Below are positions 1,364 through 32,281 of a stretch of 34,014 bases of DNA, piece after piece (position 1 is the first letter of the stretch; each line of letters begins with the position of its first letter). The notes under the pieces are model-generated. The model had not been told where the DNA came from. It did not search any database and worked only from the letters and a program-made list of their open reading frames with translations. Source of the stretch: a virus (taxonomy: Duplodnaviria; Heunggongvirae; Uroviricota; Caudoviricetes); IMG/VR virus record IMGVR_UViG_2721755658_000002; one strand, 5' to 3'. The position numbers and the translations under genes were made by a program.

Positions 1364-1382
1364 GTTGTAATAAATGATTTAT

Positions 1383-3885: not shown

Positions 3886-3887
3886 AA

Positions 3888-6264: not shown

Positions 6265-6267
6265 CAG

Positions 6268-6519
6268 TTAGTCCTGATTTTTATCCACCCTGAGTAGTTC
6301 GCGCAGAGCAAAGGCATCCCCTTTTCTGGCAAGCTTAAACAATGCCGCTCGTAACTCGGCTTCACCTTTCGCTCTGCCCTTACGGATGGCCGCATAAAAA
6401 TCTGTCATTGCTTCCCGATTTTCTTTCAGTCGGTTCAGATCAACATCCAGAACGTCAGCGATTTGTTGTGCAGTCATCCGGCACGCTGCCAGAGACTCGA
6501 CTTTCGAATACGGAATCAT
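6268..6519 (-). CDS. small hypothetical protein (83 aa)
   Basis: ORF with SD GGGGGTGA 3 nt before the ATG; stop TAA three nt before the small terminase ATG; function unknown. Confidence 0.35.
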   Translation of the reverse strand: MIPYSKVESLAACRMTAQQIADVLDVDLNRLKENREAMTDFYAAIRKGRAKGEAELRAALFKLARKGDAFALRELLRVDKNQD

Positions 6520-7387
6520 TTGTCACCCCCATTGATATGCAGGGTGTCTTCTTCCTGTATTTTTCGTGAAGGATTTTTACTGCAGCGTTGTTCCAGGTGA
6601 CCTGATGGTGAATGCGTTTATGGCTGGCACCCATCAGTGAGATTTTTACGCACGACGGCGCATACATGACGGAGTAAAAACTTTTAACGTAGGTTCCGGA
6701 ATCCAGATACAGCTCGGTCATTCCGCCGCTGTTTTTCTGCGTCTGTTTCTGCCCTAACTGGACAGCACCGATCGTCATAAACAATTCACCACAGCGACCG
6801 AGATTCGTGTACGTATTCACATCCTCGTTAATGCGCCCCATGAATGAGAACGGTCGATCAACCGAACAGATAAAGCTGTTCATTGCCTTGCGTTTCACCC
6901 ACGAAGCATGGCCGCCATTGTCACCAAGAAAATCCCCGCCCTGCGACATAGCGATGGAAAGAGCAGGTATTGATTCGTAGTACGCCAGCATTTCAGAAAG
7001 GATCGCATCCAGTTTCCTTATCGGAAAATAGGCCTGGTCATAGTTGCGATCCACCCGAAACTGGAACTCGTGATAATCATCATCGAGCTGAATGAAGTAT
7101 TTACACCCGACCAGTTTTGCCAGGTCGAAACAGGCATTACGGGCGTAAAAAATTGAGCGGCGGTCACAGAAATTATCGGCTTCGTCAAAACGACTGGCGA
7201 TATCGGCTTTGGAAAACACCAGCACCTGTTCACCAAATTCAGCCATGTACTGATTCCGTGTCTTATCTTCATCATCAACAACGATAAAAATTTTCCCGGT
7301 ATAGCCAGCACGACGCAACGTCCGGTAAGTCAGAACTTTGTCCGGTCGCCCGTGAGTCAGAATAAAGGCGCAAAAATCATCACGCAT
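6455..7387 (-). CDS. GT-A-fold-like (nucleotide-sugar transferase-like) protein, translationally coupled to the upstream ParB-like gene
   Basis: Start ATG 7385-7387 preceded by GAGGAGG and overlapping the ParB-like stop by 8 nt; motifs FILTHGRPD...KIFIVVDDEDKT and LDDDYHEF resemble GT-A DxD signatures; no TM segments evident. Confidence 0.4.
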   Translation of the reverse strand: MRDDFCAFILTHGRPDKVLTYRTLRRAGYTGKIFIVVDDEDKTRNQYMAEFGEQVLVFSKADIASRFDEADNFCDRRSIFYARNACFDLAKLVGCKYFIQLDDDYHEFQFRVDRNYDQAYFPIRKLDAILSEMLAYYESIPALSIAMSQGGDFLGDNGGHASWVKRKAMNSFICSVDRPFSFMGRINEDVNTYTNLGRCGELFMTIGAVQLGQKQTQKNSGGMTELYLDSGTYVKSFYSVMYAPSCVKISLMGASHKRIHHQVTWNNAAVKILHEKYRKKTPCISMGVTNDSVFESRVSGSVPDDCTTNR

Positions 7388-8171
7388 ATTCCTCCTCCTC
7401 ACCACCATGCATGATCTCCACCATGCGCTGCGTCATCCGGACAAATCCATTTTCAATAGCCTGCTGATAATCAATGATCACCAGCGCCGACTCCTCGAAA
7501 AAACACTGAATTTCAGAGGGGGCGTGAGCGTAATAGTCCGCAATTCTGCTGAAATTAAACACCGTGTGACGTTCTGCCGCACACAGGAGGAATTTCTCAA
7601 TATCAGGCTCAAGGGACGCCGAACGTATCCGGCTGATCAGCTCCTGAGTTTTCGTATCGTCGTACAGTTCACTGATATCCGGTTTACCGCCCGACGGCTC
7701 ATAAACAGGCGTATCAATTTTCGTCGTATACGGCTCCTCCTCATTTCCTGTACCGGGCAAAACATCCGTCAACAGTTCATCAATTTCTGTCGGGATGAAG
7801 CCTGTCAGGGAGACATCAAAATCAGCATTGATTAGGTCCGACAGCTCCATCCGCAACAGATCTTCATCCCAGCCAGCATTCATCGGCAGGCGATTATCTG
7901 CCAGGCGGTACGCCTTTTTCTGCTCATCCGTCAGGCCAGACAGAACAATGACCGGAACAGAATCCATTTTGAGCATTTCAGCCGCCATAACACGACCGTG
8001 ACCCGCAATAATTTCGCCCTTTTCGTCAATCAGCACCGGATTAGTCCAGCCGAATTGCTTAATACTTTCTACCAGTTGTGCCACCTGCTCAGGGCTGTGC
8101 GTCCTGGCGTTGTGCGCATACGGTGACAATTCTTGTAATGGGCGATAGACTATCTTTAATTTCTCGCTCAT
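7380..8171 (-). CDS. ParB/Srx N-terminal domain (ParB-like nuclease domain) protein
   Basis: N-terminal KLKIVYRPLQELSPYAHNARTHSPEQVAQLVESIKQFGWTNPVLIDEKGEIIAGHGRVMAA fits the ParB N-terminal domain pattern. Confidence 0.7.
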   Translation of the reverse strand: MSEKLKIVYRPLQELSPYAHNARTHSPEQVAQLVESIKQFGWTNPVLIDEKGEIIAGHGRVMAAEMLKMDSVPVIVLSGLTDEQKKAYRLADNRLPMNAGWDEDLLRMELSDLINADFDVSLTGFIPTEIDELLTDVLPGTGNEEEPYTTKIDTPVYEPSGGKPDISELYDDTKTQELISRIRSASLEPDIEKFLLCAAERHTVFNFSRIADYYAHAPSEIQCFFEESALVIIDYQQAIENGFVRMTQRMVEIMHGGEEEEYA

Positions 8172-9766: not shown

Positions 9767-9903
9767 ATCTAAATATTCTTTCAATTATAACCACCTTGCT
9801 GCAATATTATGATTATACTGTATAAAATTTAACTCCTCTTAGATCTTACTTCACTGTTCCTTATGAAACAATCATCAAAATGAATCATATTGTAGTTAAG
9901 ATT

Positions 9904-10368
9904 TTACTTTAAACACTGCTCGGTTATGTATTGCTGAGCACCTTCAAGTTGGGCCTGCATCATTACCAGTCGTTCCCGGAGGGTGAAATAATCCCGTTCA
10001 GCGGTGTCTGCCAGTCGGGGGGAGGCTGCATTATCCACGCCGGAGGCGGTGGTGGCTTCACGCACTGACTGACAGACTGCTTTGATGTGCAACCGACGAC
10101 GACCAGCGGCAACATCATCACGCAGAACATCATTTTCAGCTTTCGCATCAGCTAACTCCTTCGTGTATTTTGCATCGAGCGCAGCAACATCACGCTGACG
10201 CATCTGCATGTCAGTAATTGCCGCGTTCGCCAGCTTCAGTTCTCTGGCATTTTTGTCGCGCTGTTCTTTGTAGGCGATGGCGTTATCACGGTAATGATTA
10301 ACACCCCATGACAGGCAGACGACGATGCAGATAACCAGAGCGGAGATAATCGCGGTTACTCTGTTCAT
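9904..10368 (-). CDS. rzpR: Rz-type i-spanin
   Basis: [21 protein letters not shown]... N-terminal TM plus coiled-coil periplasmic domain; ATGA overlap with endolysin stop. Confidence 0.85.
9963..10148 (-). CDS. rzoR: Rz1-type o-spanin lipoprotein, embedded in the +1 frame of Rz
   Basis: [20 protein letters not shown] lipobox then proline-rich ...[16 protein letters not shown]...; wholly inside the Rz ORF. Confidence 0.85.
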
Positions 10369-10862
10369 TGCTGACCCCACAAACAGATTTCACGCTCAAT
10401 CTCACGACGAGTCATGAGACCTTTCCATTGCTTACCGCCAGCATATGTCCAGCGACGTAGCTGATCACATGCGCCTTTGATATCGCCCTGGTTTATTTTG
10501 CGAAGAAGCGTCGATGTTCTGAAATTGCCAGCACCCACGTTGTAAACGAATGAGTAAAGAGCGCCGCGCGTTGTTTCCGGTATATCGACTTTGATGTACG
10601 GGTTAATTTGTCTGGCGACCGTGGCAAGGTCTTTATTCAGGAGGGCTTTGCATTCTGCTTTGGTATACGTTTTACCGAGCATGATGTCTTTTCCTGTATG
10701 CCCGTGACATACAGTCCATACACCAACAATATCTTTGTATGGTATGTAGCTGACACCTTCCAGACCATCGTTACCACTTGGGCCAGTGATTAACACTGAT
10801 GCTATAGCAATTGCTCCGCCACCAATAGCAGCAGCAACGACTTTTCGTAATGATGGAGGCAT
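10365..10862 (-). CDS. SAR endolysin (phage 21 R-type lysozyme)
   Basis: 165 aa with N-terminal signal-anchor-release segment [18 protein letters not shown] and lysozyme core; matches phage 21 R as recalled. Confidence 0.88.
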
Positions 10863-16120: not shown

Positions 16121-17320
16121 ATGCCATTTGTTATTTATGTGTTTACTATCAGTGCCTTTGCGCTCGGACTCGCGGAATTTGTCCCCATTGGGCTGACAGA
16201 CGTTATGGCTCAGGGGTTGTGTGTGGGTGTGGAGCAGACCGGGGCAGCGGTTACAACCTATGCACTGGGGGCAACGTTCGCGGCACCCGTACTGTCTGCG
16301 CTGACAGCAAGCTGGAGCCGGAAAAATGTAATGCTTACAACTGCCGTTGTGTTTACTGCCGGTAGTCTGGCGGCCGCGTTTGCAGCCACATTACCTCAGC
16401 TCCTGTTAGCGCGGTTCATTGCTGGTCTGGGACACGGCCTGTTTCTGGCTGCGGCATCCAGTACCGCAGCTCGTCTTGCTGGACCGGGTAAAGCAGGCAG
16501 AGCGGTGGCTGTGGTATTTGGTGGCTTTACTCTGGCGATGGCAATCGGCGTACCGCTGAGTACATGGTTGGGGGGGGTGGTCTCATGGCGTCCAGTTCTC
16601 GGCGCTATTGCCGCTTTTGGCGCGTTCGGATTCCTTGGACTGTTGTTCGGTATGAAAGATCCCGTACGCAGCGTGCCCGGTGAACATAGTGACTCAGCAA
16701 TGCAGAATATCGGCATGCTGTTTAACCGTAAGTTGCTGGCCGGCGCGCTGGTTACGGTGCTGGCGTATGCAGGCTCGTTTACGGATTACACCTTTATCGC
16801 ACCTATTCTGACGCAGGTGACAGGGGTTACCGGAGCAACGGTGAGTCTGTTTATGCTGGTTTACGGTATTACAGCTGCGGTAGGTAATATTCTTGGTGGG
16901 AAACTTACCGACAGCATGGGGGTTAATCGTGCCAATATACTCATCATTAGCGGCATTGTTGTTGTCGTGCTTGGTATGTGGCTGCTGTCATCCTCACCGG
17001 TGAGCATGGGCATTCTGGTTGCGCTGCTGGGTATGGTGACATTTGCCGCAGTGCCGGCACTGCAGGCCCGTCTGATTGGTGTCGCTGAGCAACATGCTCC
17101 TCATGCGCATGGTGTTGCTGCCGGCCTGAATATTGCGGGCTTCAACTCAGGTATAGCGCTGGGATCAGTACTGGGCAGCATTACTATAAGCCACGCCGGT
17201 ATCGTGTATACCGGTATCAGCGGTGCGATTGTTTCTCTGCTCGGCCTGCTGTTGCTGCTTGCACAAATCCGTCGCAGCCACAGTCGTAAATTTCAACAGG
17301 TTAAAATCGTAGGCCAGTAA
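16121..17320 (+). CDS. MFS family transporter
   Basis: 399 aa, about 12 predicted hydrophobic helices, Gly/Ala-rich MFS-like composition; SD AGGAG. Confidence 0.75.
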   Translation: MPFVIYVFTISAFALGLAEFVPIGLTDVMAQGLCVGVEQTGAAVTTYALGATFAAPVLSALTASWSRKNVMLTTAVVFTAGSLAAAFAATLPQLLLARFIAGLGHGLFLAAASSTAARLAGPGKAGRAVAVVFGGFTLAMAIGVPLSTWLGGVVSWRPVLGAIAAFGAFGFLGLLFGMKDPVRSVPGEHSDSAMQNIGMLFNRKLLAGALVTVLAYAGSFTDYTFIAPILTQVTGVTGATVSLFMLVYGITAAVGNILGGKLTDSMGVNRANILIISGIVVVVLGMWLLSSSPVSMGILVALLGMVTFAAVPALQARLIGVAEQHAPHAHGVAAGLNIAGFNSGIALGSVLGSITISHAGIVYTGISGAIVSLLGLLLLLAQIRRSHSRKFQQVKIVGQ

Positions 17321-17331
17321 AGGGAGGTTAT

Positions 17332-18024
17332 ATGCTTACCCGTGAAAATATGCTTAATGGCACATTTGTCAGGGTGCATGAAGCGCTGCTCCCGGCGAAT
17401 ATGCTCTGGGACGCTGAAAAAATACGCGCATCAATGAACTCTACTCTGGAGGAGCGCCCGACGGGTGCTCCTGTCTGGATATTTGCCTACGGGTCATTGA
17501 TGTGGAATCCCGTGCTGGCGATTGAAGAAATGCAACGGGCCCGTCTGAAAGGATGGCAGCGCAGTTTCTGCATTCGTTTGATATCCGGACGAGCGACTCC
17601 TGATGTCCCCGGCAGGATGTTATCGCTCGACGAAGGTGGAATTACCGAAGGTATTGCGTTCAGACTGCCGGAATCGACTCTTATTAATGAGCTGGAAATT
17701 GTCTGGACGCGCGAGATGATAACCGGTCTTTACCGTCCGGTCTGGGCAGACGTTTCGCTAGGAAACGGTGAGGAAATTCAGGCGCTGGCTTTCGTATCAG
17801 ACAGACTGCATCCGCATTATGAACAGGACAATCTTACAGCGACCGTAGCGTTGAGCATCGCATCTGCCCGTGGAGACATTGGCACGAATGCAGATTATGT
17901 ATGGAAACTGCAGGCCACTCTGGGTGCGTTGGGAATACGGGATGATTACGTGAGTGAACTGGCCCTTGCTCTGCATGAGGCTCCCTGTAACGATAAACTT
18001 CATCAGCGAGGCGCTTCACTATGA
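17332..18024 (+). CDS. ChaC-like gamma-glutamylcyclotransferase family protein
   Basis: 230 aa with VWIFAYGSLMWNP motif and overall similarity to recalled E. coli ChaC; SD GGGAGG. Confidence 0.75.
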   Translation: MLTRENMLNGTFVRVHEALLPANMLWDAEKIRASMNSTLEERPTGAPVWIFAYGSLMWNPVLAIEEMQRARLKGWQRSFCIRLISGRATPDVPGRMLSLDEGGITEGIAFRLPESTLINELEIVWTREMITGLYRPVWADVSLGNGEEIQALAFVSDRLHPHYEQDNLTATVALSIASARGDIGTNADYVWKLQATLGALGIRDDYVSELALALHEAPCNDKLHQRGASL

Positions 18025-18902
18025 GCCATCTGAGCCATCTGCGAACGTTTCTTGAGGCCTATCGCTCTGGCTCCTTTTCAAAGGCGGCAGAACTACTGGG
18101 CATCACTCAGCCCGCGGCGTCACAGCATATCCAGTCTCTTGAGACTCTGGTTGGTAAGCGTCTGTTTATCAGGCAGGCCAGAGGCGTGACGGCAACCGAA
18201 GCTGCGGATGAGCTTGCCCGCTCAGTTTCACCCTTCATTGATGGTCTGGAAGAAAAGCTGTCCTCTTTCCGGTCAGGCTCTGTACGCGGGGGAACAATTA
18301 ATCTGGCAGGACCGCCAGATTTTATTCATTCCCGGCTTGGGACAGTAATGGCTCCACTAATGAAGGAGGGTTATCGCCTACGCTTTCATACCGGCAATAA
18401 GCAACGTATTTATTCCCTTTTGCATGACGGGAGCGCCGATCTCGCTGTTACCGCATCTATGCCTGATGACCGTCTGTACGGCTATGCACATCTACTGACT
18501 GAACGCATGCTCCTTGTTCATGCTCCCGCCATGTCAGAGATCATCGGATCAGAACCTGGTGCTGAAACGCTTGCCTCATTACCGCTGATTGCTTATGACG
18601 AAGAGTTGCCACTGATTAGAGCGCTCTGGGCCTCCATGTTTCAGAGAGCCCCTGAGATGCAGGCTACATTCACCATTCCGGATTTACGTATTATCCGCGA
18701 CTTGGTCTGTGACGGCCACGGGTGGACAGTGCTGCCGGATTATCACTGTGACAATGACCTGAAAAGTGGTCGCCTGATTTCAGTGACACCTGCAGACCTC
18801 GCTCCGACTAATCATCTTTATCTGGTCTGGAACAAAAGGACGGCTAATAACAGCCGAACCGCCTATGTTCGGGATTACATTCTTAAAACGTTTCCGCGTT
18901 GA
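18021..18902 (+). CDS. LysR-family transcriptional regulator
   Basis: N-terminal HTH LRTFLEAYRSGSFSKAAELLGITQPAASQHIQSLE typical of LysR regulators; ATGA overlap with upstream gene. Confidence 0.8.
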   Translation: MSHLSHLRTFLEAYRSGSFSKAAELLGITQPAASQHIQSLETLVGKRLFIRQARGVTATEAADELARSVSPFIDGLEEKLSSFRSGSVRGGTINLAGPPDFIHSRLGTVMAPLMKEGYRLRFHTGNKQRIYSLLHDGSADLAVTASMPDDRLYGYAHLLTERMLLVHAPAMSEIIGSEPGAETLASLPLIAYDEELPLIRALWASMFQRAPEMQATFTIPDLRIIRDLVCDGHGWTVLPDYHCDNDLKSGRLISVTPADLAPTNHLYLVWNKRTANNSRTAYVRDYILKTFPR

Positions 18903-18946
18903 TGTTTGAAACGGATGATTGGCGATGCGTATCATAAGTTACGTAT

Positions 18947-18970
18947 GTCCGCTTCTGGCACAAAGCAGAC
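18947..18970. repeat. 24-bp palindrome GTCCGCTTCTGGCACAAAGCAGAC (copy 2 of 3)
   Basis: 20/24 identical to copy 3; lies between the convergent LysR and DUF2254 genes. Confidence 0.6.
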
Positions 18971-19032
18971 GCCCACTCTCACGCGAATGCTTTGCCCTTG
19001 ACTTGCCAACAACCGTATCGCTTGCTCCGCAA

Positions 19033-20310
19033 CTATGGTTTTTTATTAGAATCTTCGCCACTAAATAAATTATAATAAATTGATTTTATTAGATATCTGT
19101 CAGAATCTATATGGTCAGCACGAGTAGCATGCTCTAATGTTTCAAATGCTAGGGTTTGTGCGGCTTCAGCAAAAATTCCAGGCCAACCCTTACTCAGCAT
19201 CGACAGTCCTTTAAGTACCCTTATCTGAATTTCCCTCATACTGGCACCATCGCGCGCAACAGGTGAGAAAAAGTCTTCAAGTAGATCGTTATTCTGAAGT
19301 GGTGCAACATGTACAGAAGGATATTTCACTTCTATTTCATCAGATTTATTCTGCGCGTAAGCGGAAAGTATACGTACACCTCTGCCAATGACATCAATGG
19401 CGGTTCCAGGATCGTTCACTGCGGGGGAAAGGGCTCGGCAGGCTATTTCGGCCATGACGCTAAGACAAAATCGGGGGTCCTGAGCAAATGAACGTACATC
19501 CGAGACAATAATCGTCTCAAGTAAATCGGTGCTGATTGATGACTCCTGGCCCTGACTCAGGTACAAAACTGGCGTGGACGGATGTATGAAACTGCCCGGC
19601 TGCGCCACGAGGTATACATGACGGGGATCATTGGTCAGCAGCTTGCTGAGTTTCACCATATCAACATATTCAACATAGCCAATCTTTTTCGGATAAACTG
19701 CAACCGTTCCTTTCGGCTGTTCATTGTTCTCAAGCCATGGATATCCGCCGAGACAGGGATTTCTTGCTCTCGCAATAAATGTTTCGATGGCCGCCTGTTC
19801 TACTTTTGCCGTTGTCTCACCAACCCTCCCCAGAGAGGTCAAATGCTGTATCCAGCGAAGCAATGTGATGAGGATTAAGGCAATGACAACCAGTGTTACA
19901 ATGAATAAAATGACTCTCCCCCTTTCTCCATAAGCTCCCATATTGAGGGCAATAATCCCTACCAGACTGAAGAGAAAAGAACCGATGAAGGTGGCCAGTA
20001 CATTTTGTGTGGTGACGTCTTCAACAACTAAACGAGTAGCTCTGGGAGTCACATTAGTAGTGGCTGAACCGTAGGCTGTGACCATGATGCTCAGCGAAAA
20101 TGTGGTCACTGCCAGCATACTCGATGCCAGTATGTTCAGAATGTTATCGACTGCTTCCGCACCAACCTTCACGGAAACCGACTCAGGTATCATTGATTTA
20201 AAAAGAATTGATAAAAGGGCCGTTATTATTGCGACAATTGCGAATAACGTTGCCCTGAACCATAGTTTTTTAAATGTCTGCTTCAGCATCCATTTCCAGC
20301 GTGAAATCAT
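19033..20310 (-). CDS. DUF2254-like predicted membrane protein
   Basis: ORF with N-terminal TM helices; start set to ATG 20308-20310 (GAGGGAA upstream); alternative ATG at 20325. Confidence 0.5.
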   Translation of the reverse strand: MISRWKWMLKQTFKKLWFRATLFAIVAIITALLSILFKSMIPESVSVKVGAEAVDNILNILASSMLAVTTFSLSIMVTAYGSATTNVTPRATRLVVEDVTTQNVLATFIGSFLFSLVGIIALNMGAYGERGRVILFIVTLVVIALILITLLRWIQHLTSLGRVGETTAKVEQAAIETFIARARNPCLGGYPWLENNEQPKGTVAVYPKKIGYVEYVDMVKLSKLLTNDPRHVYLVAQPGSFIHPSTPVLYLSQGQESSISTDLLETIIVSDVRSFAQDPRFCLSVMAEIACRALSPAVNDPGTAIDVIGRGVRILSAYAQNKSDEIEVKYPSVHVAPLQNNDLLEDFFSPVARDGASMREIQIRVLKGLSMLSKGWPGIFAEAAQTLAFETLEHATRADHIDSDRYLIKSIYYNLFSGEDSNKKP

Positions 20311-20373
20311 TCTGCATTCCCTCATATTGCAGCCGGGATAAATAAATGCCGCCTCTGTGGCGGCATGTTGCTG

Positions 20374-22377
20374 TTAACGAACCAGATGCAGGAAGTGCAG
20401 GTGTTTTTCGTACTGGTCCAGTATGTCATTAATCAGCTGTTCCTGATTCCAGCCCATTACATCATAATTTTGGCCGCCCTCTTTGAGATAGACTTCAGCG
20501 CGATAATATCGATGTTGTTCACTCTGCTGCTCATCATTATCCAGCGCAGCGAGCGCGAAGGTCGGTGAGTTATACCCGCGAAGCCTCACTTCATATATAT
20601 AATTCAGCTCGTTGCCCAAATCGACTTCAAGGCGAATACGATCCTCGGCGGCGTCACTGATGTGGCTTATCGTTCCCTGCTTGTTAAGTTCCTCCTGAAC
20701 CAGCGTCATGGCGGGTTGGATAATGTCGTCCATAAAACGTTTCACAAGAGAGCGCTTCGGCAAATACGCGATATTGCGTAACCTTCTCTGCCAGGGAATT
20801 GGGTTACGTGCAGCCGTAGGAGCAATAGTCGCCATGCTAAGGCTTTCACGCTTGGTCAAATCCCGACGCAGGGCTTTTAACAGTCCGTATATGGATATTA
20901 ATAAGATAACTGAGAAGGGCAATGCACTCGCTATCGTTACGGTTTGCAACGCACTCAGCCCCCCTGCGATCAGCAGGGCAATAGCAACAACGCCCATGAG
21001 CGATGCCCAGAAAATTCGCTGCCAGACGGGCGTGTTTGCCACCCCACCTGATGCCAGAGTATCCACAACCATTGCCCCCGAATCAGCAGACGTTACAAAG
21101 AAGACGATGACCATCGCCATTGCAATGAATGACAGCACGGAAGAGAACGGGAAATGCTCCAGGAAATTAAACAGGGCAAGCGCAACATCCTGCTGAACGG
21201 TATTGGCGAGGTCAGTGGCGCCCTGGTTCATGATGAGATAGATGGCGCTGTTTCCAAACACCGTCATCCACATGAGCGTAAAGCCGGCGGGAACAAACAA
21301 CACGCCAGTCACGAACTCACGAATTGTCCTGCCGCGGGAAACGCGTGCAATGAACATACCTACAAACGGCGACCATGAAAGCCACCATCCCCAGTATAAT
21401 AATGTCCAGCCCCCCAGCCAGTTGCTCGACTTGGGTTCATACGCGTAAAGGTTGAACGTTTTACTCACCAGTTCCGACAGATAACCACCCGTATTTTCCA
21501 CAAATGACTTCAGCAGAAGCACAGTGGGACCCAGGCACAAGACCAGCGCCAGGAGCAACACCGCCAGGCCCAGATTAAGCTCAGACAGGATGCGTATTCC
21601 CTTGTCCAGGCCGGACACCACCGAAATCGTCGCTAACCCCGTGATGACCACGATCAAAATGACCTGTACCGTTTCATTGATGGGCACGCCGAAAAGATGG
21701 TTCAAACCGGCATTCACCTGCAATACACCGTAACCCAGCGATGTTGCAACGCCAAAGACAGTGCCTATCACGGCGAAGATATCAACCGCGTGGCCTATAG
21801 GCCCGTAAATGCGATCGCCGATAATGGGATAGAGCGCAGAACGCAGCGTTAAAGGCAGACCGTGACGGTAACTGAAAAAGGCCAGAATCAGCGCCACGAT
21901 GGCATAAATTGCCCATGCGTGCAGACCCCAGTGGAAGAACGTCAGGCGCATGGCTTCCTTCGCTGCCGCAACGGTCTCTGGAGTGCCGACAGGTGGCGAA
22001 AGATAATGCATCACAGGTTCGGCAACGCCAAAGAACATCAGGCCGATCCCCATCCCTGCCGAAAAAAGCATCGCGAACCAGGAGTGGTAGCTGAAATCAG
22101 GCTGCGCATGGTCTGGGCCCAGCTTTATATCACCGTAACGTGAGAGTCCAAGGAACGTGACGCTCAGTAAAATCAGGGCCACAGCAAGTATGTAGAACCA
22201 GCTGGCATTCGTGAAGATTTGTTGCTGAAGTAGTTTAAAATTTTTGTCGGCGACATCCGGGAATACGGCGGCAAAGGCGACAAGAAGGAAAATTAGCAAA
22301 GCAGATGTAAAGAATACCGCTTTGTTAATCTGGCTTGTAGACTTCTTTGGGGTTGTATCATTTTCACTCATAATCAT
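20374..22377 (-). CDS. BCCT-family transporter (BetT-like choline/betaine transporter)
   Basis: 667 aa multi-TM; C-terminal ...QEQLINDILDQYEKHLHFLHL... resembles BetT C-terminal extension as recalled; start may be the ATG at 22371. Confidence 0.8.
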   Translation of the reverse strand: MIMSENDTTPKKSTSQINKAVFFTSALLIFLLVAFAAVFPDVADKNFKLLQQQIFTNASWFYILAVALILLSVTFLGLSRYGDIKLGPDHAQPDFSYHSWFAMLFSAGMGIGLMFFGVAEPVMHYLSPPVGTPETVAAAKEAMRLTFFHWGLHAWAIYAIVALILAFFSYRHGLPLTLRSALYPIIGDRIYGPIGHAVDIFAVIGTVFGVATSLGYGVLQVNAGLNHLFGVPINETVQVILIVVITGLATISVVSGLDKGIRILSELNLGLAVLLLALVLCLGPTVLLLKSFVENTGGYLSELVSKTFNLYAYEPKSSNWLGGWTLLYWGWWLSWSPFVGMFIARVSRGRTIREFVTGVLFVPAGFTLMWMTVFGNSAIYLIMNQGATDLANTVQQDVALALFNFLEHFPFSSVLSFIAMAMVIVFFVTSADSGAMVVDTLASGGVANTPVWQRIFWASLMGVVAIALLIAGGLSALQTVTIASALPFSVILLISIYGLLKALRRDLTKRESLSMATIAPTAARNPIPWQRRLRNIAYLPKRSLVKRFMDDIIQPAMTLVQEELNKQGTISHISDAAEDRIRLEVDLGNELNYIYEVRLRGYNSPTFALAALDNDEQQSEQHRYYRAEVYLKEGGQNYDVMGWNQEQLINDILDQYEKHLHFLHLVR

Positions 22378-24316: not shown

Positions 24317-24742
24317 TCAATGCACAGCCACAATATTTCCTGCAGGGCCACCACGATTCATCTGGTTGAAACCAGCGATCGCCACTGCGACAAAATCATC
24401 AGCGTCTCTCACCAGTCGTTCCCGCGTCTCCACTAGTTCCCGAAAATAGGCTGAGCTATGGCTGCGCATTCGGGCCACCAGCAGAGGTGGCATTGCTTTT
24501 TCGATAGCTGGTAACAACGCCTGAATTTTTTCAACTGCATCAGGGGTGTCTTTCTCTACCCAGCGGAAAATTTTCTGGGTATTGCGAGCCAGGGCTTCCG
24601 GATGGCTGTCGTCATACAGTTCTGGGAACGTCATACCCAGTTCAAAATAAGCCCTGGTTATTTCAGCTGCCGGAACTTTTTCACCGTCCGGATGCGCCCA
24701 GGCATTCATCGCCATGCGGATGTGTTCATGCTTGATTTTCAT
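24317..24742 (-). CDS. ydaT: YdaT-like protein
   Basis: 141-aa ORF after the Cro-like ydaS, same order as Rac ydaS-ydaT; identity mainly by position. Confidence 0.55.
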   Translation of the reverse strand: MKIKHEHIRMAMNAWAHPDGEKVPAAEITRAYFELGMTFPELYDDSHPEALARNTQKIFRWVEKDTPDAVEKIQALLPAIEKAMPPLLVARMRSHSSAYFRELVETRERLVRDADDFVAVAIAGFNQMNRGGPAGNIVAVH

Positions 24743-25007
24743 GAATCAAGCTCCTAGAAAGTGGTTGTGTTAACATTTTGGTATCTTCCAGCTCGGGCCA
24801 AATATTCATCCAATCAAAAGGCCTTAGTTGCTGACGTGTAACTTCACCATTACTGGCTCGCTCAATAAGGACACATAACGATGCCCCTAACACTTGACCT
24901 TTACTCAATGCCTTTCTTAGATAACCGATGCTGGTACCACACTCGCATGCAAACATACGCTGTTCATCTGACGAAAGAGAATTGAGAAATATTCTTAATT
25001 CTTCCAT
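24726..25007 (-). CDS. ydaS: YdaS-like Cro/cII-type HTH protein
   Basis: 93 aa, divergent from the repressor gene across a 100-bp operator-bearing spacer; SD AAGGAG. Confidence 0.55.
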   Translation of the reverse strand: MEELRIFLNSLSSDEQRMFACECGTSIGYLRKALSKGQVLGASLCVLIERASNGEVTRQQLRPFDWMNIWPELEDTKMLTQPLSRSLIHENQA

Positions 25008-25038
25008 AGCTACTCCTTAGTAAACACAGCAAAGAACA

Positions 25039-25111
25039 CCCATAGGTAAACAAAAGTCAATACCCACAGGTTGTTTACCTTGCAGTAATCGCATCTATTA
25101 TTTACCTATGG
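25039..25111. promoter_or_regulatory. divergent promoter/operator region with three copies of CCATAGGTAAA(CA)
   Basis: CCCATAGGTAAACA (25039-25052), inverted TGTTTACCT (25072-25080), inverted TTTACCTATGG (25101-25111) overlapping the repressor ATG. Confidence 0.45.
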
Positions 25112-25527
25112 ACAAATATGAATTTAGACGACAGCAACTCATCAAAATTCGTGATGAGAAATGCGATGGTAAAGCGGTTAACGTGGCCAGAAAGATCGGG
25201 CGCGAGCCTTCTTATGTATCAAGAATGTTGTACCCAGAGGGGAAAAAGGGAAAAAAACGGATCGCTGATGATATGGTGGAGATTATCGAAGAGTCCTTTG
25301 GGTTACCCCGGGGATGGATGGATGGTATCGTTTCATCATCAACGAACACAGCCTCCAGTTATGAAACAAGGGTTCTAACGCCACGACAACGTATTTTTTT
25401 AGATCTCTTAGACGAACTGCCAGAAAGTGAAGCGGATAACTTATTAAAAACTCTTGAAGAGAAAAAACAGTATTACAATATGATCTACGAAGAAATCCGT
25501 AAAAAGAAAGCACAAAACGCATCATAG
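25108..25527 (+). CDS. racR: prophage repressor (RacR-like, XRE-type HTH)
   Basis: 139 aa with HTH-like AVNVARKIGREPSYVSRML; divergent from ydaS; flanked on both sides by related operator-like repeats. Confidence 0.55.
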   Translation: MDKYEFRRQQLIKIRDEKCDGKAVNVARKIGREPSYVSRMLYPEGKKGKKRIADDMVEIIEESFGLPRGWMDGIVSSSTNTASSYETRVLTPRQRIFLDLLDELPESEADNLLKTLEEKKQYYNMIYEEIRKKKAQNAS

Positions 25528-25781
25528 CTCACCAAACAACTAGTCACCAGTTAAGACACCGCAAAAAGTTACCCATGGGTATTTACTTTTTAAATACCTA
25601 TGGGTATCCTTCTTTTCATACCAACCCACCCCGCCCCACAGAATGCAGGGCAATACTTCGAGTTACCAGGCAGTGGTCAGGGGTTAAGTAGCCAGCCCGA
25701 GGCGTAAGAACATGACGGCGGGATTCAAATTTTGCAGTGCAGCAGTTAGTTCCGCCACCCGGCGTTAAGGGGAGAGATAAG

Positions 25782-25916
25782 ATGGTGCATTACGAAGTAG
25801 TTCAGTATTTGATGGATTGTTGCGGTATCACTTACAACCAGGCTGTGCAGGCTTTACGCAGCAACGACTGGGATCTCTGGCAGGCAGAAGTCGCTATACG
25901 TAGCAACAAGATGTGA
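25782..25916 (+). CDS. ydaG: small protein YdaG-like (44 aa)
   Basis: ORF MVHYEVVQYLMDCCGITYNQAVQALRSNDWDLWQAEVAIRSNKM with SD AAGGGGAG; below the ORF-track size cutoff; length and position match Rac ydaG. Confidence 0.5.
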   Translation: MVHYEVVQYLMDCCGITYNQAVQALRSNDWDLWQAEVAIRSNKM

Positions 25917-25926
25917 GATTCGCAAA

Positions 25927-26082
25927 ATGCAAAAAATCGACCTCGGCAACAACGAATCCCTGGTGTGCGGCGTGTTCCCCAACCAGGATGGAACGTTCAC
26001 TGCCATGACGTATACCAAAAGCAAAACATTTAAAACCGAAACTGGTGCGCGCCGATGGTTGGAGAAGCACACAGTAAGCTAA
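25927..26082 (+). CDS. ydaF: small protein YdaF-like (51 aa)
   Basis: ORF MQKIDLGNNESLVCGVFPNQDGTFTAMTYTKSKTFKTETGARRWLEKHTVS right after ydaG; length and position match Rac ydaF. Confidence 0.5.
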   Translation: MQKIDLGNNESLVCGVFPNQDGTFTAMTYTKSKTFKTETGARRWLEKHTVS

Positions 26083-26567
26083 CGATTAAAACGTCTACTC
26101 CTGCTGTTCCAGAATAACTTCATAAAATGGGAGTATTTTTCGGTGACGAGATAATAAGAACAGTTTGCGCTATCACTCTGATGTTGAATGATGCCCTTCC
26201 GTTCTAATTTTTTCATAACCGGGTTACGGCAAGGAGAAGTGATAATAAGATTTCCTGTTTTAAGGAAATCTTTAAATACAGCGATTTCTTTCTCAGATAA
26301 ACGAAGCAATACTCGTTGCTCTGGTAGTAATGAATAATGCTTTTGAATATGTGCTCGCAATCTTGAGAAGGAAATGGCGACCACGAAAGAAAAGGCAAAA
26401 ACGATAATCTGAAAGAGCCAAGGCATTTCAGTATAAGCATTGAATGCGACAGTAAACTCTTTCGGTATCAGCCAGAGAGTGAGACCAAAAATGATAATCG
26501 TATACATAAGTCTTTCGAGTGGCTCGTTAGCAAAAAGTTTCAACAATGGAGTAAATACATCCAACAT
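26079..26567 (-). CDS. sieB: superinfection exclusion protein SieB
   Basis: 162 aa from ATG 26565-26567 (MLDVFTPLLKLFANEPLERLMYTIIIFGLTLWLIPKEF...), matching Rac SieB as recalled. Confidence 0.8.
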   Translation of the reverse strand: MLDVFTPLLKLFANEPLERLMYTIIIFGLTLWLIPKEFTVAFNAYTEMPWLFQIIVFAFSFVVAISFSRLRAHIQKHYSLLPEQRVLLRLSEKEIAVFKDFLKTGNLIITSPCRNPVMKKLERKGIIQHQSDSANCSYYLVTEKYSHFMKLFWNSRSRRFNR

Positions 26568-27082
26568 ATCAATAACTCTCAACTGTAAGGGTATTGAAAT
26601 GTTAACACAAGCTCTCGCTGTAGGGGTATAGCCGAGACCACCGAAGCCCGGAGGTGGTGAAATAAAACCGGGCACAACACGAAGGCGCATTTCCGATATC
26701 CATAAAGAGTCGGTCTTGTCTGTTAAATTTAAATGGTGGAGTGCGCCTCCGGTTGTAAATAACGACATTGCTGTGTGTAGTCCTGGCGGCATCAGTTTTT
26801 TTCTTGAAGTTCGGCTGATGTCCGCCCTTTTTAAAGTGAATTTTGTGATGCGGTGAATGCGGCTAAGCGCACGTGGCACAGTTAAAAGTCATGTTAGTCC
26901 TTATTGGTTTGGGTGGGAAAGCCGACTGTAATTGTTAACTGGTTGCAGTCACCTGGAGGCACCAGGCACCGCATCAACAAAGTTCATTTGTAAAAATGGA
27001 GATAATTATGATTGCACATCACTTCGGAACTGATGAAATACCACGTCAGTGTGTGACTCCTGGCGATTATGTTCTTCATGAA

Positions 27083-27091
27083 GGCCGGACA
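27083..27091. repeat. 9-bp target-site duplication GGCCGGACA, left copy
   Basis: Identical 9-mer directly abuts both IS1 copy B termini. Confidence 0.9.
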
Positions 27092-27146
27092 GGTGATGCT
27101 GCCAACTTACTGATTTAGTGTATGATGGTGTTTTTGAGGTGCTCCA

Positions 27147-27422
27147 GTGGCTTCTGTTTCTATCAGCTGTCCCTCCTGTTCAGCTACTGACGGGGTGGTG
27201 CGTAACGGCAAAAGCACCGCCGGACATCAGCGCTATCTCTGCTCTCACTGCCGTAAAACATGGCAACTGCAGTTCACTTACACCGCTTCTCAACCCGGTA
27301 CGCACCAGAAAATCATTGATATGGCCATGAATGGCGTTGGATGCCGGGCAACAGCCCGCATTATGGGCGTTGGCCTCAACACGATTTTACGTCACTTAAA
27401 AAACTCAGGCCGCAGTCGGTAA
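27147..27422 (+). CDS. insA: IS1 InsA
   Basis: Identical translation to copy A InsA. Confidence 0.93.
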
Positions 27423-27844
27423 CCTCGCGCATACAGCCGGGCAGTGACGTCATCGTCTGCGCGGAAATGGACGAACAGTGGGGATACGTCGGGGCTAAAT
27501 CGCGCCAGCGCTGGCTGTTTTACGCGTATGACAGGCTCCGGAAGACGGTTGTTGCGCACGTATTCGGTGAACGCACTATGGCGACGCTGGGGCGTCTTAT
27601 GAGCCTGCTGTCACCCTTTGACGTGGTGATATGGATGACGGATGGCTGGCCGCTGTATGAATCCCGCCTGAAGGGAAAGCTGCACGTAATCAGCAAGCGA
27701 TATACGCAGCGAATTGAGCGGCATAACCTGAATCTGAGGCAGCACCTGGCACGGCTGGGACGGAAGTCGCTGTCGTTCTCAAAATCGGTGGAGCTGCATG
27801 ACAAAGTCATCGGGCATTATCTGAACATAAAACACTATCAATAA
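27341..27844 (+). CDS. insB: IS1 InsB reading frame
   Basis: Identical translation to copy A InsB. Confidence 0.92.
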
Positions 27845-27859
27845 GTTGGAGTCATTACC

Positions 27860-27868
27860 GGCCGGACA
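27860..27868. repeat. 9-bp target-site duplication GGCCGGACA, right copy
   Basis: See left copy. Confidence 0.9.
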
Positions 27869-28005
27869 TATATTGCCTCGGCAAACAATATTAAAAAGCG
27901 AAAACTATATATTCGTAACCTGACCACAAAAACATGCATTACTGACCGCATGATTAAAGTCTTCCTCGGTCGTGATGGTTTACCTGTAAAGGCGGAGTCA
28001 TGGTG

Positions 28006-28176
28006 ATGACTAAGAAAATAAAATGTGCTTACCACCTTTGCAAAAAAGACGTTGAAGAAAGCAAAGCTATTGAAAGAATGCTTCACTTCATGCACGGGAT
28101 TTTATCAAAAGACGAACCGAGAAAATATTGCAGTGAAGCTTGTGCCGAAAAAGACCAGATGGCACATGAACTTTAA
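28006..28176 (+). CDS. ydaE: small Cys-containing protein YdaE-like (56 aa)
   Basis: ORF MTKKIKCAYHLCKKDVEESKAIERMLHFMHGILSKDEPRKYCSEACAEKDQMAHEL between kilR and racC; below ORF-track cutoff. Confidence 0.6.
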   Translation: MTKKIKCAYHLCKKDVEESKAIERMLHFMHGILSKDEPRKYCSEACAEKDQMAHEL

Positions 28177-28250
28177 TTAATTGACTATTCGAAACTGAAT
28201 TTATGCCAGAAATGGCAGGTATTCGCTCAACCTTAATTAAGGAGAAAAAC

Positions 28251-28526
28251 ATGATTACCAATTATGAAGCCACTGTTGTAACTACCGATGACATTGTTCA
28301 CGAGGTGAATCTGGAAGGAAAGCGCATTGGCTACGTAATTAAAACAGAAAATAAAGAAACCCCATTCACTGTGGTTGATATCGATGGTCCATCAGGCAAC
28401 GTAAAAACACTTGATGAAGGTGTCAAAAAAATGTGCCTGGTGCATATCGGAAAGAATCTGCCCGCAGAAAAAAAAGCCGAATTTCTGGCAACTCTAATTG
28501 CAATGAAATTAAAAGGTGAAATCTGA
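28251..28526 (+). CDS. racC: RacC
   Basis: 91 aa from ATG 28251 (MITNYEATVVTTDDIVHEVNLEGKRIGYVIK...) with SD GGAG; directly upstream of recE. Confidence 0.8.
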   Translation: MITNYEATVVTTDDIVHEVNLEGKRIGYVIKTENKETPFTVVDIDGPSGNVKTLDEGVKKMCLVHIGKNLPAEKKAEFLATLIAMKLKGEI

Positions 28527-28627
28527 AAGAAATAGCCTGCGTATGGCGCAGGCTATGAACAGTGTGTATCCGGCAAGATCATTCACTGAACAAAACGAAT
28601 TTTAATCTGAGTTGAGGTTAAAAAACA

Positions 28628-31228
28628 ATGAGCACAAAACCACTCTTCCTGTTACGGAAAGCGAAAAAATCATCCGGTGAACCTGACGTCGTCCTGTGGG
28701 CAAGCAACGATTTTGAATCGACCTGTGCCACTCTGGACTACCTGATCGTTAAGTCAGGTAAAAAACTGAGCAGCTATTTTAAAGCTGTTGCCACGAATTT
28801 TCCTGTCGTTAATGACCTGCCCGCTGAAGGTGAGATCGATTTTACCTGGAGTGAACGCTATCAACTCAGCAAAGACTCCATGACATGGGAACTAAAACCG
28901 GGAGCAGCACCAGACAACGCTCACTATCAAGGCAATACCAACGTCAACGGCGAAGACATGACTGAGATTGAGGAGAATATGCTACTCCCAATTTCTGGCC
29001 AGGAACTGCCCATTCGTTGGCTTGCTCAACACGGCAGCGAAAAACCGGTAACGCACGTTTCACGCGACGGACTCCAGGCATTACACATTGCTCGGGCTGA
29101 AGAACTACCGGCTGTTACTGCCCTGGCTGTTTCCCACAAAACCAGCCTGCTCGACCCGCTGGAAATTCGCGAACTCCACAAACTGGTTCGTGACACTGAC
29201 AAAGTTTTCCCTAATCCTGGTAATTCAAACCTGGGACTGATAACTGCTTTTTTCGAAGCATACCTGAACGCTGACTACACCGATCGAGGACTGCTGACAA
29301 AAGAGTGGATGAAGGGTAATCGTGTTTCACACATCACTCGCACGGCTTCCGGTGCTAATGCTGGCGGCGGAAACCTCACCGATCGCGGCGAAGGTTTCGT
29401 ACACGATCTGACGTCACTGGCGCGCGACGTAGCCACTGGCGTACTGGCCCGTTCAATGGATCTGGACATCTATAACCTTCATCCGGCACACGCTAAACGC
29501 ATTGAGGAAATTATCGCTGAAAATAAACCGCCCTTTTCTGTTTTCCGCGACAAATTCATCACCATGCCTGGCGGGCTGGATTATTCCCGCGCCATCGTGG
29601 TTGCGTCCGTAAAAGAAGCACCAATTGGGATCGAGGTCATCCCCGCGCACGTCACTGAATATCTGAACAAAGTACTGACTGAAACCGATCATGCCAACCC
29701 TGATCCGGAAATCGTGGATATTGCCTGCGGTCGCTCCTCTGCCCCGATGCCGCAGCGAGTAACAGAAGAAGGAAAACAGGATGATGAAGAAAAACCGCAA
29801 CCATCTGGAACAACGGCAGTTGAACAGGGAGAGGCTGAAACAATGGAACCGGACGCAACTGAACATCATCAGGACACGCAGCCGCTGGATGCTCAGTCAC
29901 AGGTAAATTCTGTTGATGCGAAATATCAGGAACTGCGGGCAGAACTCCATGAAGCCCGGAAAAACATTCCATCAAAAAATCCTGTCGATGCCGATAAATT
30001 GCTTGCTGCATCACGTGGTGAATTTGTTGACGGAATTAGCGACCCGAACGATCCGAAATGGGTAAAGGGGATCCAGACTCGCGATTGTGTGTACCAGAAC
30101 CAGCCAGAAACGGAAAAAACCAGCCCAGATATGAATCAACCTGAGCCAGTAGTGCAACAGGAACCGGAAATAGCCTGCAATGCCTGCGGCCAGACTGGCG
30201 GGGATAACTGCCCTGACTGTGGTGCGGTGATGGGCGACGCAACATACCAGGAAACATTCGCTGAAGAGAGTCAGGTTGAAGCTAAGGAAAATGATCCGGA
30301 GGAAATGGAAGGCGCTGAACATCCGCACAATGAGAATGCTGGCAGCGATCCGCATCGCGATTGCAGTGATGAAACTGGCGAAGTCGCAGATCCCGTAATC
30401 GTAGAAGACATAGAGCCAGGTATTTATTACGGAATTTCGAATGAGAATTACCACGCGGGTCCCGGTATCAGTAAGTCTCAGCTCGATGACATTGCTGATA
30501 CTCCGGCACTATATTTGTGGCGTAAAAATGCCCCCGTGGACACCACAAAGACAAAAACGCTCGATTTAGGAACTGCTTTCCACTGCCGGGTACTTGAACC
30601 GGAAGAATTCAGTAACCGCTTTATCGTAGCACCTGAATTTAACCGCCGTACAAACGCCGGAAAAGAAGAAGAGAAAGCGTTTCTGATGGAATGCGCAAGC
30701 ACAGGAAAAACGGTTATCACTGCGGAAGAAGGCCGGAAAATTGAACTCATGTATCAAAGCGTTATGGCTTTGCCGCTGGGGCAATGGCTTGTTGAAAGCG
30801 CCGGACACGCTGAATCATCAATTTACTGGGAAGATCCTGAAACAGGAATTTTGTGTCGGTGCCGTCCGGACAAAATTATCCCTGAATTTCACTGGATCAT
30901 GGACGTGAAAACTACGGCGGATATTCAACGATTCAAAACCGCTTATTACGACTACCGCTATCACGTTCAGGATGCATTCTACAGTGACGGTTATGAAGCA
31001 CAGTTTGGAGTGCAGCCAACTTTCGTTTTTCTGGTTGCCAGCACAACTATTGAATGCGGACGTTATCCGGTTGAAATTTTCATGATGGGCGAAGAAGCAA
31101 AACTGGCAGGTCAACAGGAATATCACCGCAATCTGCGAACCCTGTCTGACTGCCTGAATACCGATGAATGGCCAGCTATTAAGACATTATCACTGCCCCG
31201 CTGGGCTAAGGAATATGCAAATGACTAA
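28628..31228 (+). CDS. recE: exodeoxyribonuclease VIII RecE
   Basis: 866-aa [33 protein letters not shown]...; length, sequence and synteny with recT match Rac recE. Confidence 0.95.
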
Positions 31229-32030
31229 GCAACCACCAATCGCAAAAGCCGATCTGCAAAAAACTCAGGGAAACCGTGCACCAGCAGCAGTTAAAAATAG
31301 CGACGTGATTAGTTTTATTAACCAGCCATCAATGAAAGAGCAACTGGCAGCAGCTCTTCCACGCCATATGACGGCTGAACGTATGATCCGTATCGCCACC
31401 ACAGAAATTCGTAAAGTTCCGGCGTTAGGAAACTGTGACACTATGAGTTTTGTCAGTGCGATCGTACAGTGTTCACAGCTCGGACTTGAGCCAGGTAGCG
31501 CCCTCGGTCATGCATATTTACTGCCTTTTGGTAATAAAAACGAAAAGAGCGGTAAAAAGAACGTTCAGCTAATCATTGGCTATCGCGGCATGATTGATCT
31601 GGCTCGCCGTTCTGGTCAAATCGCCAGCCTGTCAGCCCGTGTTGTCCGTGAAGGTGACGAGTTTAGCTTCGAATTTGGCCTTGATGAAAAGTTAATACAC
31701 CGCCCGGGAGAAAACGAAGATGCCCCGGTTACCCACGTCTATGCTGTCGCAAGACTGAAAGACGGAGGTACTCAGTTTGAAGTTATGACGCGCAAACAGA
31801 TTGAGCTGGTGCGCAGCCTGAGTAAAGCTGGTAATAACGGGCCGTGGGTAACTCACTGGGAAGAAATGGCAAAGAAAACGGCTATTCGTCGCCTGTTCAA
31901 ATATTTGCCCGTATCAATTGAGATCCAGCGTGCAGTATCAATGGATGAAAAGGAACCACTGACAATCGATCCTGCAGATTCCTCTGTATTAACCGGGGAA
32001 TACAGTGTAATCGATAATTCAGAGGAATAA
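31221..32030 (+). CDS. recT: RecT single-strand annealing protein
   Basis: 269 aa from ATG 31221 ([32 protein letters not shown]...); 8-nt overlap with recE end. Confidence 0.95.
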
Positions 32031-32086
32031 TTCAGCCTGGCGGTGTAATGCACCGCCAACTTGAAATATTTTTTATGAGAAAAATT

Positions 32087-32281
32087 ATGAGATATGACAA
32101 TGTTAAACCATGTCCATTTTGTGGTTGTCCATCAGTAACGGTGAAAGCCATTTCAGGATATTACCGAGCGAAGTGTAACGGATGCGAATCCCGAACCGGT
32201 TATGGTGGAAGTGAAAAAGAAGCACTCGAAAGATGGAATAAACGAACCACTGGAAATAATAATGGAGGTGTTCATGTATAA
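32087..32281 (+). CDS. ralR: RalR (Lar) restriction-alleviation protein / type I toxin
   Basis: 64 aa MRYDNVKPCPFCGCPSVTVKAISGYYRAKCNGCESRTGYGGSEKEALERWNKRTTGNNNGGVHV. Confidence 0.85.
   Translation: MRYDNVKPCPFCGCPSVTVKAISGYYRAKCNGCESRTGYGGSEKEALERWNKRTTGNNNGGVHV

Follow-up and report, generated by a model that had tools for sequence, protein, structure and literature searches.

An IS1 insertion interrupts kilR upstream of recE and recT in a Rac-type Escherichia coli prophage

Insertions of the insertion sequence IS1 in gal and lac are classical polar mutations, and the polarity of IS1 is known from classical genetics. In Escherichia coli that carry the Rac prophage, the toxin KilR kills the cell when Rho or NusG fails and gives an OxyS-triggered growth arrest after oxidative damage. 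In K-12, transcription that starts at the racR promoter can read through into its gene, kilR (also kil), but a Rho/NusG-dependent terminator within racR normally prevents this (PMC4150792; PMC5793797). After oxidative stress OxyS lowers NusG, leading to read-through into kil (PMC5793797), and removal of kilR gives bicyclomycin tolerance (Cardinale 2008, as cited in PMC4632033). Further downstream, recE and recT are fully silent in wild type (PMC3945230). Here we describe kilR::IS1, an allele in which IS1 interrupts kilR upstream of ydaE, racC, recE and recT, in a Rac-type E. coli prophage (IMG/VR record IMGVR_UViG_2721755658_000002; 34,014 nt ending at the intR stop codon, hereafter the window). 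We consider it highly probable that this is an ordinary IS1 insertion that leaves kilR null and reduces transcription from upstream into ydaE-recT.

IS1 in kilR and the predicted loss of KilR

The kilR gene lies between sieB and ydaE-racC-recE, in the gene order of K-12 and of strain GS04, and is split in the window by a complete IS1 with the following features (window positions throughout).

27008-27091, + strand: kilR 5' fragment, codons 1-28
27083-27091: target-site duplication, left copy, GGCCGGACA
27092-27859, + strand (the kilR strand): IS1 copy B, complete, 768 bp, with left inverted repeat (IRL) at 27092-27114 and right inverted repeat (IRR) at 27837-27859
27099-27126, + strand: sigma-70-like site CTGCCA-16-TATGAT in the IS1 left end, from the promoter scan
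27147-27422, + strand: insA, 91 aa, with NCBIfam IS1 and Zn-binding domain matches
27396-27404, + strand: programmed -1 frameshift motif TTAAAAAAC (A6C), which joins insA to insB'
27401-27844, + strand: insB' frame, DDE catalytic part, translated only after the frameshift
27860-27868: target-site duplication, right copy, GGCCGGACA
27869-28006, + strand: kilR 3' fragment, codons 29-73 plus TGA, whose own start is limited to an 18-codon in-frame ATG
1-713, + strand: IS1 copy A, IS1 positions 56-768, with its left end cut by the window edge

Copy B differs from IS1A of K-12 at 3 of 768 nt (765/768 identical), and its terminal inverted repeats, GGTGATGCTGCCAACTTACTGAT and GGTAATGACTCCAACTTATTGAT (the latter as complement at the right end), match at 18 of 23 positions. 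The modelled InsAB' fusion (232 aa) matched Zn_ribbon_InsA (PF03811; 69.9 bits), HTH_Tnp_IS1 (PF12759; 98.4 bits) and DDE_Tnp_IS1 (PF03400; 260.7 bits), and the IS1 transposase profile NF033558 matched the InsB' part with 145.6 bits. The CTGCCA-16-TATGAT site in the left end is at what we take to be the location of IS1's own transposase promoter. Every sequence-level feature that defines IS1 is present, and copy B is a bona fide IS1. The duplicated 9-mer GGCCGGACA occurs once more in the 34-kb window, at 21609, and the chance that a specified 9-mer repeats exactly at the opposite end is 4^-9 (~4e-6). The original prediction had described a complete copy B with a perfect flanking duplication; the 768 bp and both copies of GGCCGGACA were reproduced, and its description and coordinates proved right in every detail, to the base.

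The label copy B was also apt, as a second IS1 occupies 1-713. This copy A has the same orientation as copy B (27147-27859) with 0 mismatches across 713 bp, and it truncates a DUF6651 head-module gene, the DUF6651 match breaking off at the edge of IS1, after position 75 of the 113-position profile. Copy A, or another identical copy in the genome, could plausibly have been the donor of copy B. Intact open reading frames (ORFs) and ends, together with an identical copy 27 kb away, fit recent activity of a transposition-competent element, which would have inserted by ordinary IS1 transposition into kilR codons 26-28 and made the 9-bp duplication in doing so.

When 27008-27091 and 27869-28006 are joined, the resulting 222 nt hold 73 codons and a stop, and the TGA of the restored gene (28004-28006) shares its A with the ydaE ATG (28006-28008), which reproduces at 27008-28006 the 73-codon frame and the stop/start overlap expected upon excision. 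KilR identity was scored with NCBIfam NF008465 ("FtsZ inhibitor protein"), which the restored protein matched over 1-73/73 with 161.5 bits (cutoff 92); a precomputed match to Pfam PF27398 also exists. The restored protein is identical to WP_000560223.1 from strain GS04, an allele common in E. coli, and a single residue, F51C, sets it apart from the KilR of K-12, so that the proposed comparison with the kilR of K-12 Rac came out as a match. Many E. coli genomes contain the reconstructed empty site (724 bp) at 100% identity. The interrupted gene is thus a bona fide kilR that, as it stands, fails a feature needed for function.

What can be translated from the kilR start in situ is short.

27008-27118, + strand: ORF of 36 aa, KilR residues 1-28 followed by GDAANLLI from the IS1 left end and a stop

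This product is without 45 residues of KilR, and the C-terminal region required for toxicity is absent. KilR is predicted to be a small beta-sheet protein with an essential 12-residue C-terminal tail, and KilR lacking its last 12 residues (KilR-delta12C) is completely non-toxic (PMC12482147). Since delta12C is already non-toxic and 45 residues are lost here, kilR::IS1 should be a null allele, as had been proposed: the remaining 36-residue peptide would have neither the beta-sheet core nor the tail, and the FtsZ/MreB-inhibiting toxin would be lost. An active fragment from the downstream remnant is unlikely because its sole in-frame ATG gives 18 codons. An alternative fusion ORF of 40 aa, from a start at 26996, was also considered and rejected, with no such product on record.

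By extension from the work on K-12, the strain would escape killing by KilR when Rho/NusG silencing fails (bicyclomycin; nusG or rho defects), and the OxyS-NusG-KilR growth-arrest checkpoint would be lost. A natural null allele accordingly predicts differences between strains in tolerance of bicyclomycin or other Rho inhibitors and in recovery from oxidative or quinolone stress.

Transcription towards recE and recT

KilS, a northern-verified small RNA from the kilR 5' untranslated region (5'UTR), has its own transcription start site (PMC8175672), and its sequence is conserved in the window. The genes that follow kilR are intact.

26738-26832, + strand: KilS small RNA, a segment of the kilR 5'UTR with a terminator-like hairpin, 95 nt, 100% identical to K-12 kilS (b4833)
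28006-28176, + strand: ydaE, 56 aa, 100% aa identity to K-12, NF041288
28251-28526, + strand: racC, 91 aa, 100% aa identity to K-12
28628-31228, + strand: recE (exonuclease VIII), 866 aa, intact, 99.77% aa identity to K-12, Exonuc_VIII and PDDEXK
31221-32030, + strand: recT, 269 aa, intact, 100% aa identity to K-12, NF007351

The KilS segment folds at -33.7 kcal/mol (z = -3.1). Both known sources of kilR transcription, the racR read-through route and the KilS/5'UTR promoter, are positioned upstream of IS1. The proposal that the insertion splits the promoter-proximal region from ydaE-racC-recET therefore fits the published sources, of which the KilS part is conserved here. In a transcript that enters IS1, the 5' kilR ORF and insA are translatable, and ~584 nt then follow untranslated up to the ydaE ATG, including a kilR remnant that is C-rich and G-poor. 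The insertion breaks the stop/start coupling of kilR and ydaE, although ydaE keeps its own GGAG 8 nt upstream. A scan for + strand intrinsic terminators inside IS1 found none, so that polarity is not attributable to such a terminator and would be Rho-dependent.

Polarity of IS1 on ydaE-racC-recE-recT is therefore plausible. Transcripts from upstream, whether from racR read-through or from the KilS promoter, would have to cross the 768 bp of IS1 with its long untranslated stretch, and expression of ydaE-racC-recE-recT driven from upstream would fall through Rho-dependent polarity, because ~584 nt are untranslated and the kilR-ydaE coupling is broken. The original prediction had called the element strongly polar; the strength of that term was its own inference, and any polarity would be of the Rho-dependent kind.

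Several points weigh against this account. The effects on toxin and expression are predicted from work on K-12, and the polarity is predicted for this strain from its sequence and from classical genetics. K-12 RacR has no match in the window (tblastn) and the immunity region differs, and the racR-internal Rho terminator and read-through route of K-12 may not apply exactly here. Transcription from upstream would reach kilR mainly when Rho/NusG is weakened, which is when Rho-dependent polarity is weakest. As recET is already silent in wild type, a block would change little in normal growth, and the loss of upstream transcription would matter only under derepression. A promoter formed at the right junction could offset or even reverse the predicted polarity. 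Finally, the density of IS1 around kilR is only ~2.5x a crude genome average, a modest enrichment by which selection is not demonstrated.

The immunity module of the window (24726-25527) differs from that of K-12 Rac and encodes a 139-aa repressor-like protein without a Pfam match and with a weak DicA-like C-terminal match; the racR-internal Rho terminator of K-12 may not exist in that form in the window.

IS1 insertions around kilR and alternative readings

The kilR locus is present in ~1,700 of 5,426 complete E. coli genomes, and queries for the left and right kilR/IS1 junctions of the window found the exact junctions in none of the 5,426. The queries were built so that the IS1 part alone could not seed a match; 46 matches at ">=80%" were rejected, being intact kilR aligned from query nt 18 with no junctions. 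Neither the exact junction pattern nor a gapped pattern (IS1(+) within the next 30 nt) was found in the GTDB species representatives or the JGI metagenomes, and no description of a kilR::IS1 allele was found in the literature.

An identical 36-aa fusion product is, however, called in the draft assembly GCA_036910355.1, where the site of IS1 is the same to the nucleotide and its orientation is also the same (JATAHC010000064.1, 3001-3194; window 27008-27201). The flanking Rac-like DNA of this assembly is 94% identical to the window, its immunity genes differ, and its kilR nt 1-84 carry four synonymous changes, one of which, a C-to-T change, is inside the 9-bp target (GGTCGGACA). This insertion is best read as an independent event at the same site.

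Other insertions were found nearby. In GCA_003292545.1, which has the same Rac type as the window, IS1 follows window position 27883 in the opposite orientation; in HCP6S3_I1 it abuts 27893 and the 5' part of kilR is deleted; in TUM10008 it lies inverted at 27940-27948 with the duplication TACTGACCG; and in JX21CE35 it lies inverted at 26991-26999, 9 bp before the kilR ATG. The IS1 sites of the window, GCA_003292545.1, HCP6S3_I1 and TUM10008 cluster in kilR codons 26-55, the nearest being 15-25 bp from that of the window. The TUM10008 target is in the loop of an antisense terminator-like hairpin with a T-run (27933-27952, - strand) in the 3' part of kilR. JX21CE35 has two IS1 copies (1700-2467 and 2893-3660 of the locus compared) that bracket an intact kilR-ydaE; the second, at window 28184-28192 in the ydaE-racC spacer, points at racC-recE. 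Further IS1 insertions in related strains interrupt ydaE, the ydaE-racC spacer or sieB, or are located upstream and accompanied by deletions. At three other loci (B19695, GDSC2239PM and TUM9757) IS1 abuts the kilR region without a target duplication and the neighbouring DNA is gone; B19695 is without ydaS-racR-sieB, so that its repressor region is gone and an intact kilR is directly downstream of IS1, and in TUM9757 the missing DNA runs from racC into the 5' part of intR. All of these resemble adjacent deletions mediated by IS1.

Among the six kilR events, 4/6 are within ~35 bp and two coincide exactly; by rough arithmetic, an exact coincidence among six events has a probability of ~3% under uniform insertion. 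This suggests, but falls short of proving, that the kilR stretch is a hotspot for IS1 and that selection against a toxic gene may have contributed; the choice of site would thus reflect a stretch repeatedly used by IS1, through target preference and possibly selection. An integration host factor (IHF) site is near a known IS1 hotspot in pBR322. No IHF site WATCAANNNNTTR (<=1 mismatch) was found within ~200 bp of the kilR target.

Contig-edge "partial" KilR proteins (P0026, P0030, P0032-P0034 and others) were left out as evidence of insertion, because genomes have kilR-like sequence at a median of 2 places and assemblies break there anyway. Public KilR variants (P0028, P0031, P0036-P0057) include frameshifts, several of them near the A-run of codons 35-39, and deletions that fuse kilR to ydaE; some of these frameshifted or deleted variants may be sequencing errors. 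The odd KilR tail of P0024 is Nextera adapter read-through and was rejected.

The most serious alternative is neutral decay, in which IS1 entered a dispensable, silent region of a defective prophage by target preference, with no selective or regulatory consequence. Several observations agree with it. kilR and recET are repressed in normal growth, the head module of the prophage is already damaged by copy A, and in related strains IS1 is found at many further positions of Rac, together with adjacent deletions. The enrichment near kilR is slight (~2.5x the crude average), the independent event at the same site indicates target preference rather than selection, and frameshifted or deleted KilR variants are many in public data. 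The effects of KilR on fitness are, however, documented in both directions, lethal on failure of Rho/NusG and protective after oxidative or nalidixic-acid stress, which makes a strictly neutral loss unlikely in every environment. We regard neutral decay as quite possible, if somewhat short of probable.

A second alternative reverses the predicted effect on recET. It starts from a site at the right junction of IS1.

27846-27874, + strand: candidate hybrid outward promoter, -35 TTGGAG inside IRR, 17-nt spacer, -10 TATATT

The junction reads, in succession, ...AAGTTGGAGTCATTACC, GGCCGGACA and TATATTGCC..., with TTGGAG 8 nt from the IS1 tip. The spacer consists of 8 nt of IS1 and the 9 nt of the duplication, TATATT is kilR codons 29-30, and the IS1 right end is 768 bp from the recE ATG. 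Insertion under this alternative would have created an sbcA-like allele, in which the hybrid promoter transcribes the kilR 3' remnant and ydaE-racC-recE-recT independently of the repressor, giving constitutive RecET with the toxin gone. The IS1 inverted repeat holds an outward -35, and hybrid promoters form when a -10 is at the right distance (PMC8764528); cases tabulated in PMC9330008 are bla TEM-1, acrEF and TEM-6. The geometry is read directly from the sequence and is rare by position, since, of the positions and orientations in which IS1 could enter the window, only 1.2% would have a -10 of >=5/6 at 16-18 nt, and 0.39% at exactly 17 nt. With an approximate sigma-70 weight matrix, the site ranks 12 of 203,904 hexamer pairs in the window; from 26.5 to 28.7 kb no + strand site scores higher, and the consensus site in the left end of IS1 scores lower. 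A GGAG of its own precedes ydaE, neither recE nor recT is damaged, and the normally silent recET is switched on by upstream sbcA changes (PMC3945230, PMC6379578), a literature that bears out the earlier statement that RecET is classically activated by rearrangements upstream. The suggestion that IS-derived transcription might replace the lost transcription gains in this site a concrete candidate, predicted from the sequence.

The evidence for activity is balanced by several weaknesses. The -35 agrees with the consensus at only 3/6 positions and there is no extended -10 TG; at 8/12 overall the site is below the 9/12 threshold of the promoter scan, which did not list it; the matrix is approximate and the test was post hoc. 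A leader of ~125 nt, untranslated and C-rich, precedes ydaE and could recruit Rho, and AT-rich prophage DNA is commonly silenced by H-NS. By-eye reading of the flanks showed that IS1(+) alleles near kilR in HCP6S3_I1 and JX21CE35 have no -10 at the right spacing. On balance we consider activation unlikely for a promoter that is known so far as a sequence match. Were it active, the allele would be a natural molecular example of the classical sbcA phenotype, and constitutive RecET would have effects on prophage mosaicism, on how incoming linear DNA recombines and on recombineering behaviour.

More improbable still is a combined form, in which codons 26-36 are a hotspot, the insertion both removes the toxin and makes a repressor-independent promoter for ydaE-racC-recE-recT, and selection helps to explain the events at the same site; natural kilR::IS1 strains would then be spontaneous sbcA-like, RecET-proficient E. 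coli.

It is hardly credible that the kilR IS1 is a repeat misplaced in assembly, or the outer end of a 27-kb IS1-flanked composite transposon moved whole: two identical direct-repeat copies do bracket 714-27091 and repeats often cause misassembly, but copy B bears a perfect 9-bp duplication, which would not arise from a misplaced repeat, its precise removal gives an ORF identical to the wild-type allele, a composite would be expected to have its duplication outside the IS1 pair and not around copy B alone, and from one copy to the other the window is colinear with Rac, as GS04 is. Both a Tn9-like IS1 composite and misassembly are ruled out by the duplication on both sides of copy B, because of which copy B is taken to have entered on its own, by simple transposition, and not as one end of a larger composite.

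Ordinary insertion with loss of KilR and reduced transcription from upstream thus remains the preferred reading. If neither the predicted differences between strains nor an active junction promoter holds, kilR::IS1 simply adds to the decay that IS1 is causing in a cryptic prophage. Its main use is then in annotation, where kilR should be listed as a pseudogene and the exact coordinates of IS1 entered.

Prophage context and comparison with known systems

The window is a Rac-type E. coli prophage in which the + strand order is a repressor-like gene, two small ORFs including ydaF, (sieB on the opposite strand), kilR, ydaE, racC, recE, recT, ralR, rcbA, xisR and intR, in agreement with the annotations of GS04 and K-12. 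Two of the genes upstream of kilR are placed as follows.

25108-25527, + strand: repressor-like gene, 139 aa
26079-26567, - strand: sieB

From ~25617 to 32100 the window has 99.8% DNA identity to K-12 Rac. The closest complete genome is GS04, with 100.0% identity across 24.9 kb and an intact kilR. GS04 carries, at 10003-10771 of the locus compared, an IS1 that is 1 nt off the window copies and is followed directly by window position 8062; it is without 7.3 kb that correspond to window 714-8061 (head, portal and terminase genes and the TAGT and ParB_N genes described below). This loss is apparently a deletion beside the GS04 counterpart of copy A. Between trkG and the lysis genes, at window 9898-9906, GS04 has one IS1 more, which is flanked by a duplication.

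Two further parts of the window are not features of K-12 Rac. On the - strand, at 6455-8171, a gene for a TET-associated glycosyltransferase (TAGT; PF20691, 121 bits) overlaps one for a ParB_N-domain protein; the pair is between the small terminase gene and trkG and could be a phage DNA-modification module. A cargo block at 16121-22377, between hokD and the replication genes, encodes (by the annotation names of GS04) an MFS transporter, a gamma-glutamylcyclotransferase, a LysR regulator, a DUF2254 protein and a BCCT transporter.

Compared with known systems, copy B has in common with IS1A and the IS1 of E. coli K-12 its 768 bp, imperfect inverted repeats of ~23 bp, insA/insB' and the A6C motif, as well as the 9-bp target duplication and the interruption of a gene within an operon. 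A Tn9-like composite requires a duplication outside the IS1 pair, whereas the duplication here is around copy B alone, and the left end of copy A is beyond the window. Other natural IS1 insertions in the sieB-kilR-ydaE-racC part of Rac (TUM10008, HCP6S3_I1, JX21CE35, EEC_W5, GCA_003292545.1 and GCA_036910355.1) involve the same element in the same small region; they are independent of the window allele, with other duplications, orientations or prophage backgrounds, and some have adjacent deletions, which the window allele does not.

In the cited passages, the engineered kilR or rac deletions of K-12 (Cardinale et al. 2008; Barshishat et al. 2018; Wang et al. 2010) likewise lose the 73-aa FtsZ/MreB inhibitor, and the phenotypes that kilR::IS1 would be expected to share with them are tolerance of Rho/NusG failure and no OxyS-dependent growth arrest. 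Unlike these deletions, kilR::IS1 is a natural allele in which codons 1-28 and all the flanking genes remain, and in which the 768 bp of IS1, with promoter signals of its own, now separate the upstream promoters from ydaE-recT. The candidate junction promoter shares with the IS1 hybrid promoters of bla TEM-1 (Prentki et al. 1986), acrEF (Olliver et al. 2005) and afaA in ST131 (PMC8764528), as these are described in the cited passages, an outward -35 that is spaced 17 nt from a host -10-like hexamer; activity was demonstrated for those promoters, whereas the one at kilR is a prediction with a weak -35 (TTGGAG, 3/6).

Like the sbcA alleles (sbcA23, sbcA8), kilR::IS1 is a lesion that precedes recE within its transcription unit; it leaves recE and recT intact and could supply a promoter; the sbcA alleles have raised recE/recT, and kilR::IS1 is likened to them from its sequence. 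Clark and colleagues are said to have found in 1994 that Tn5/IS50 insertions upstream of recE drove recE from an IS50 promoter. From the classical IS1 insertion mutations, kilR::IS1 differs in location alone, and we regard it as an ordinary IS1 knockout in an operon, of the classical kind, to which the hotspot and the possible junction promoter add modest twists.

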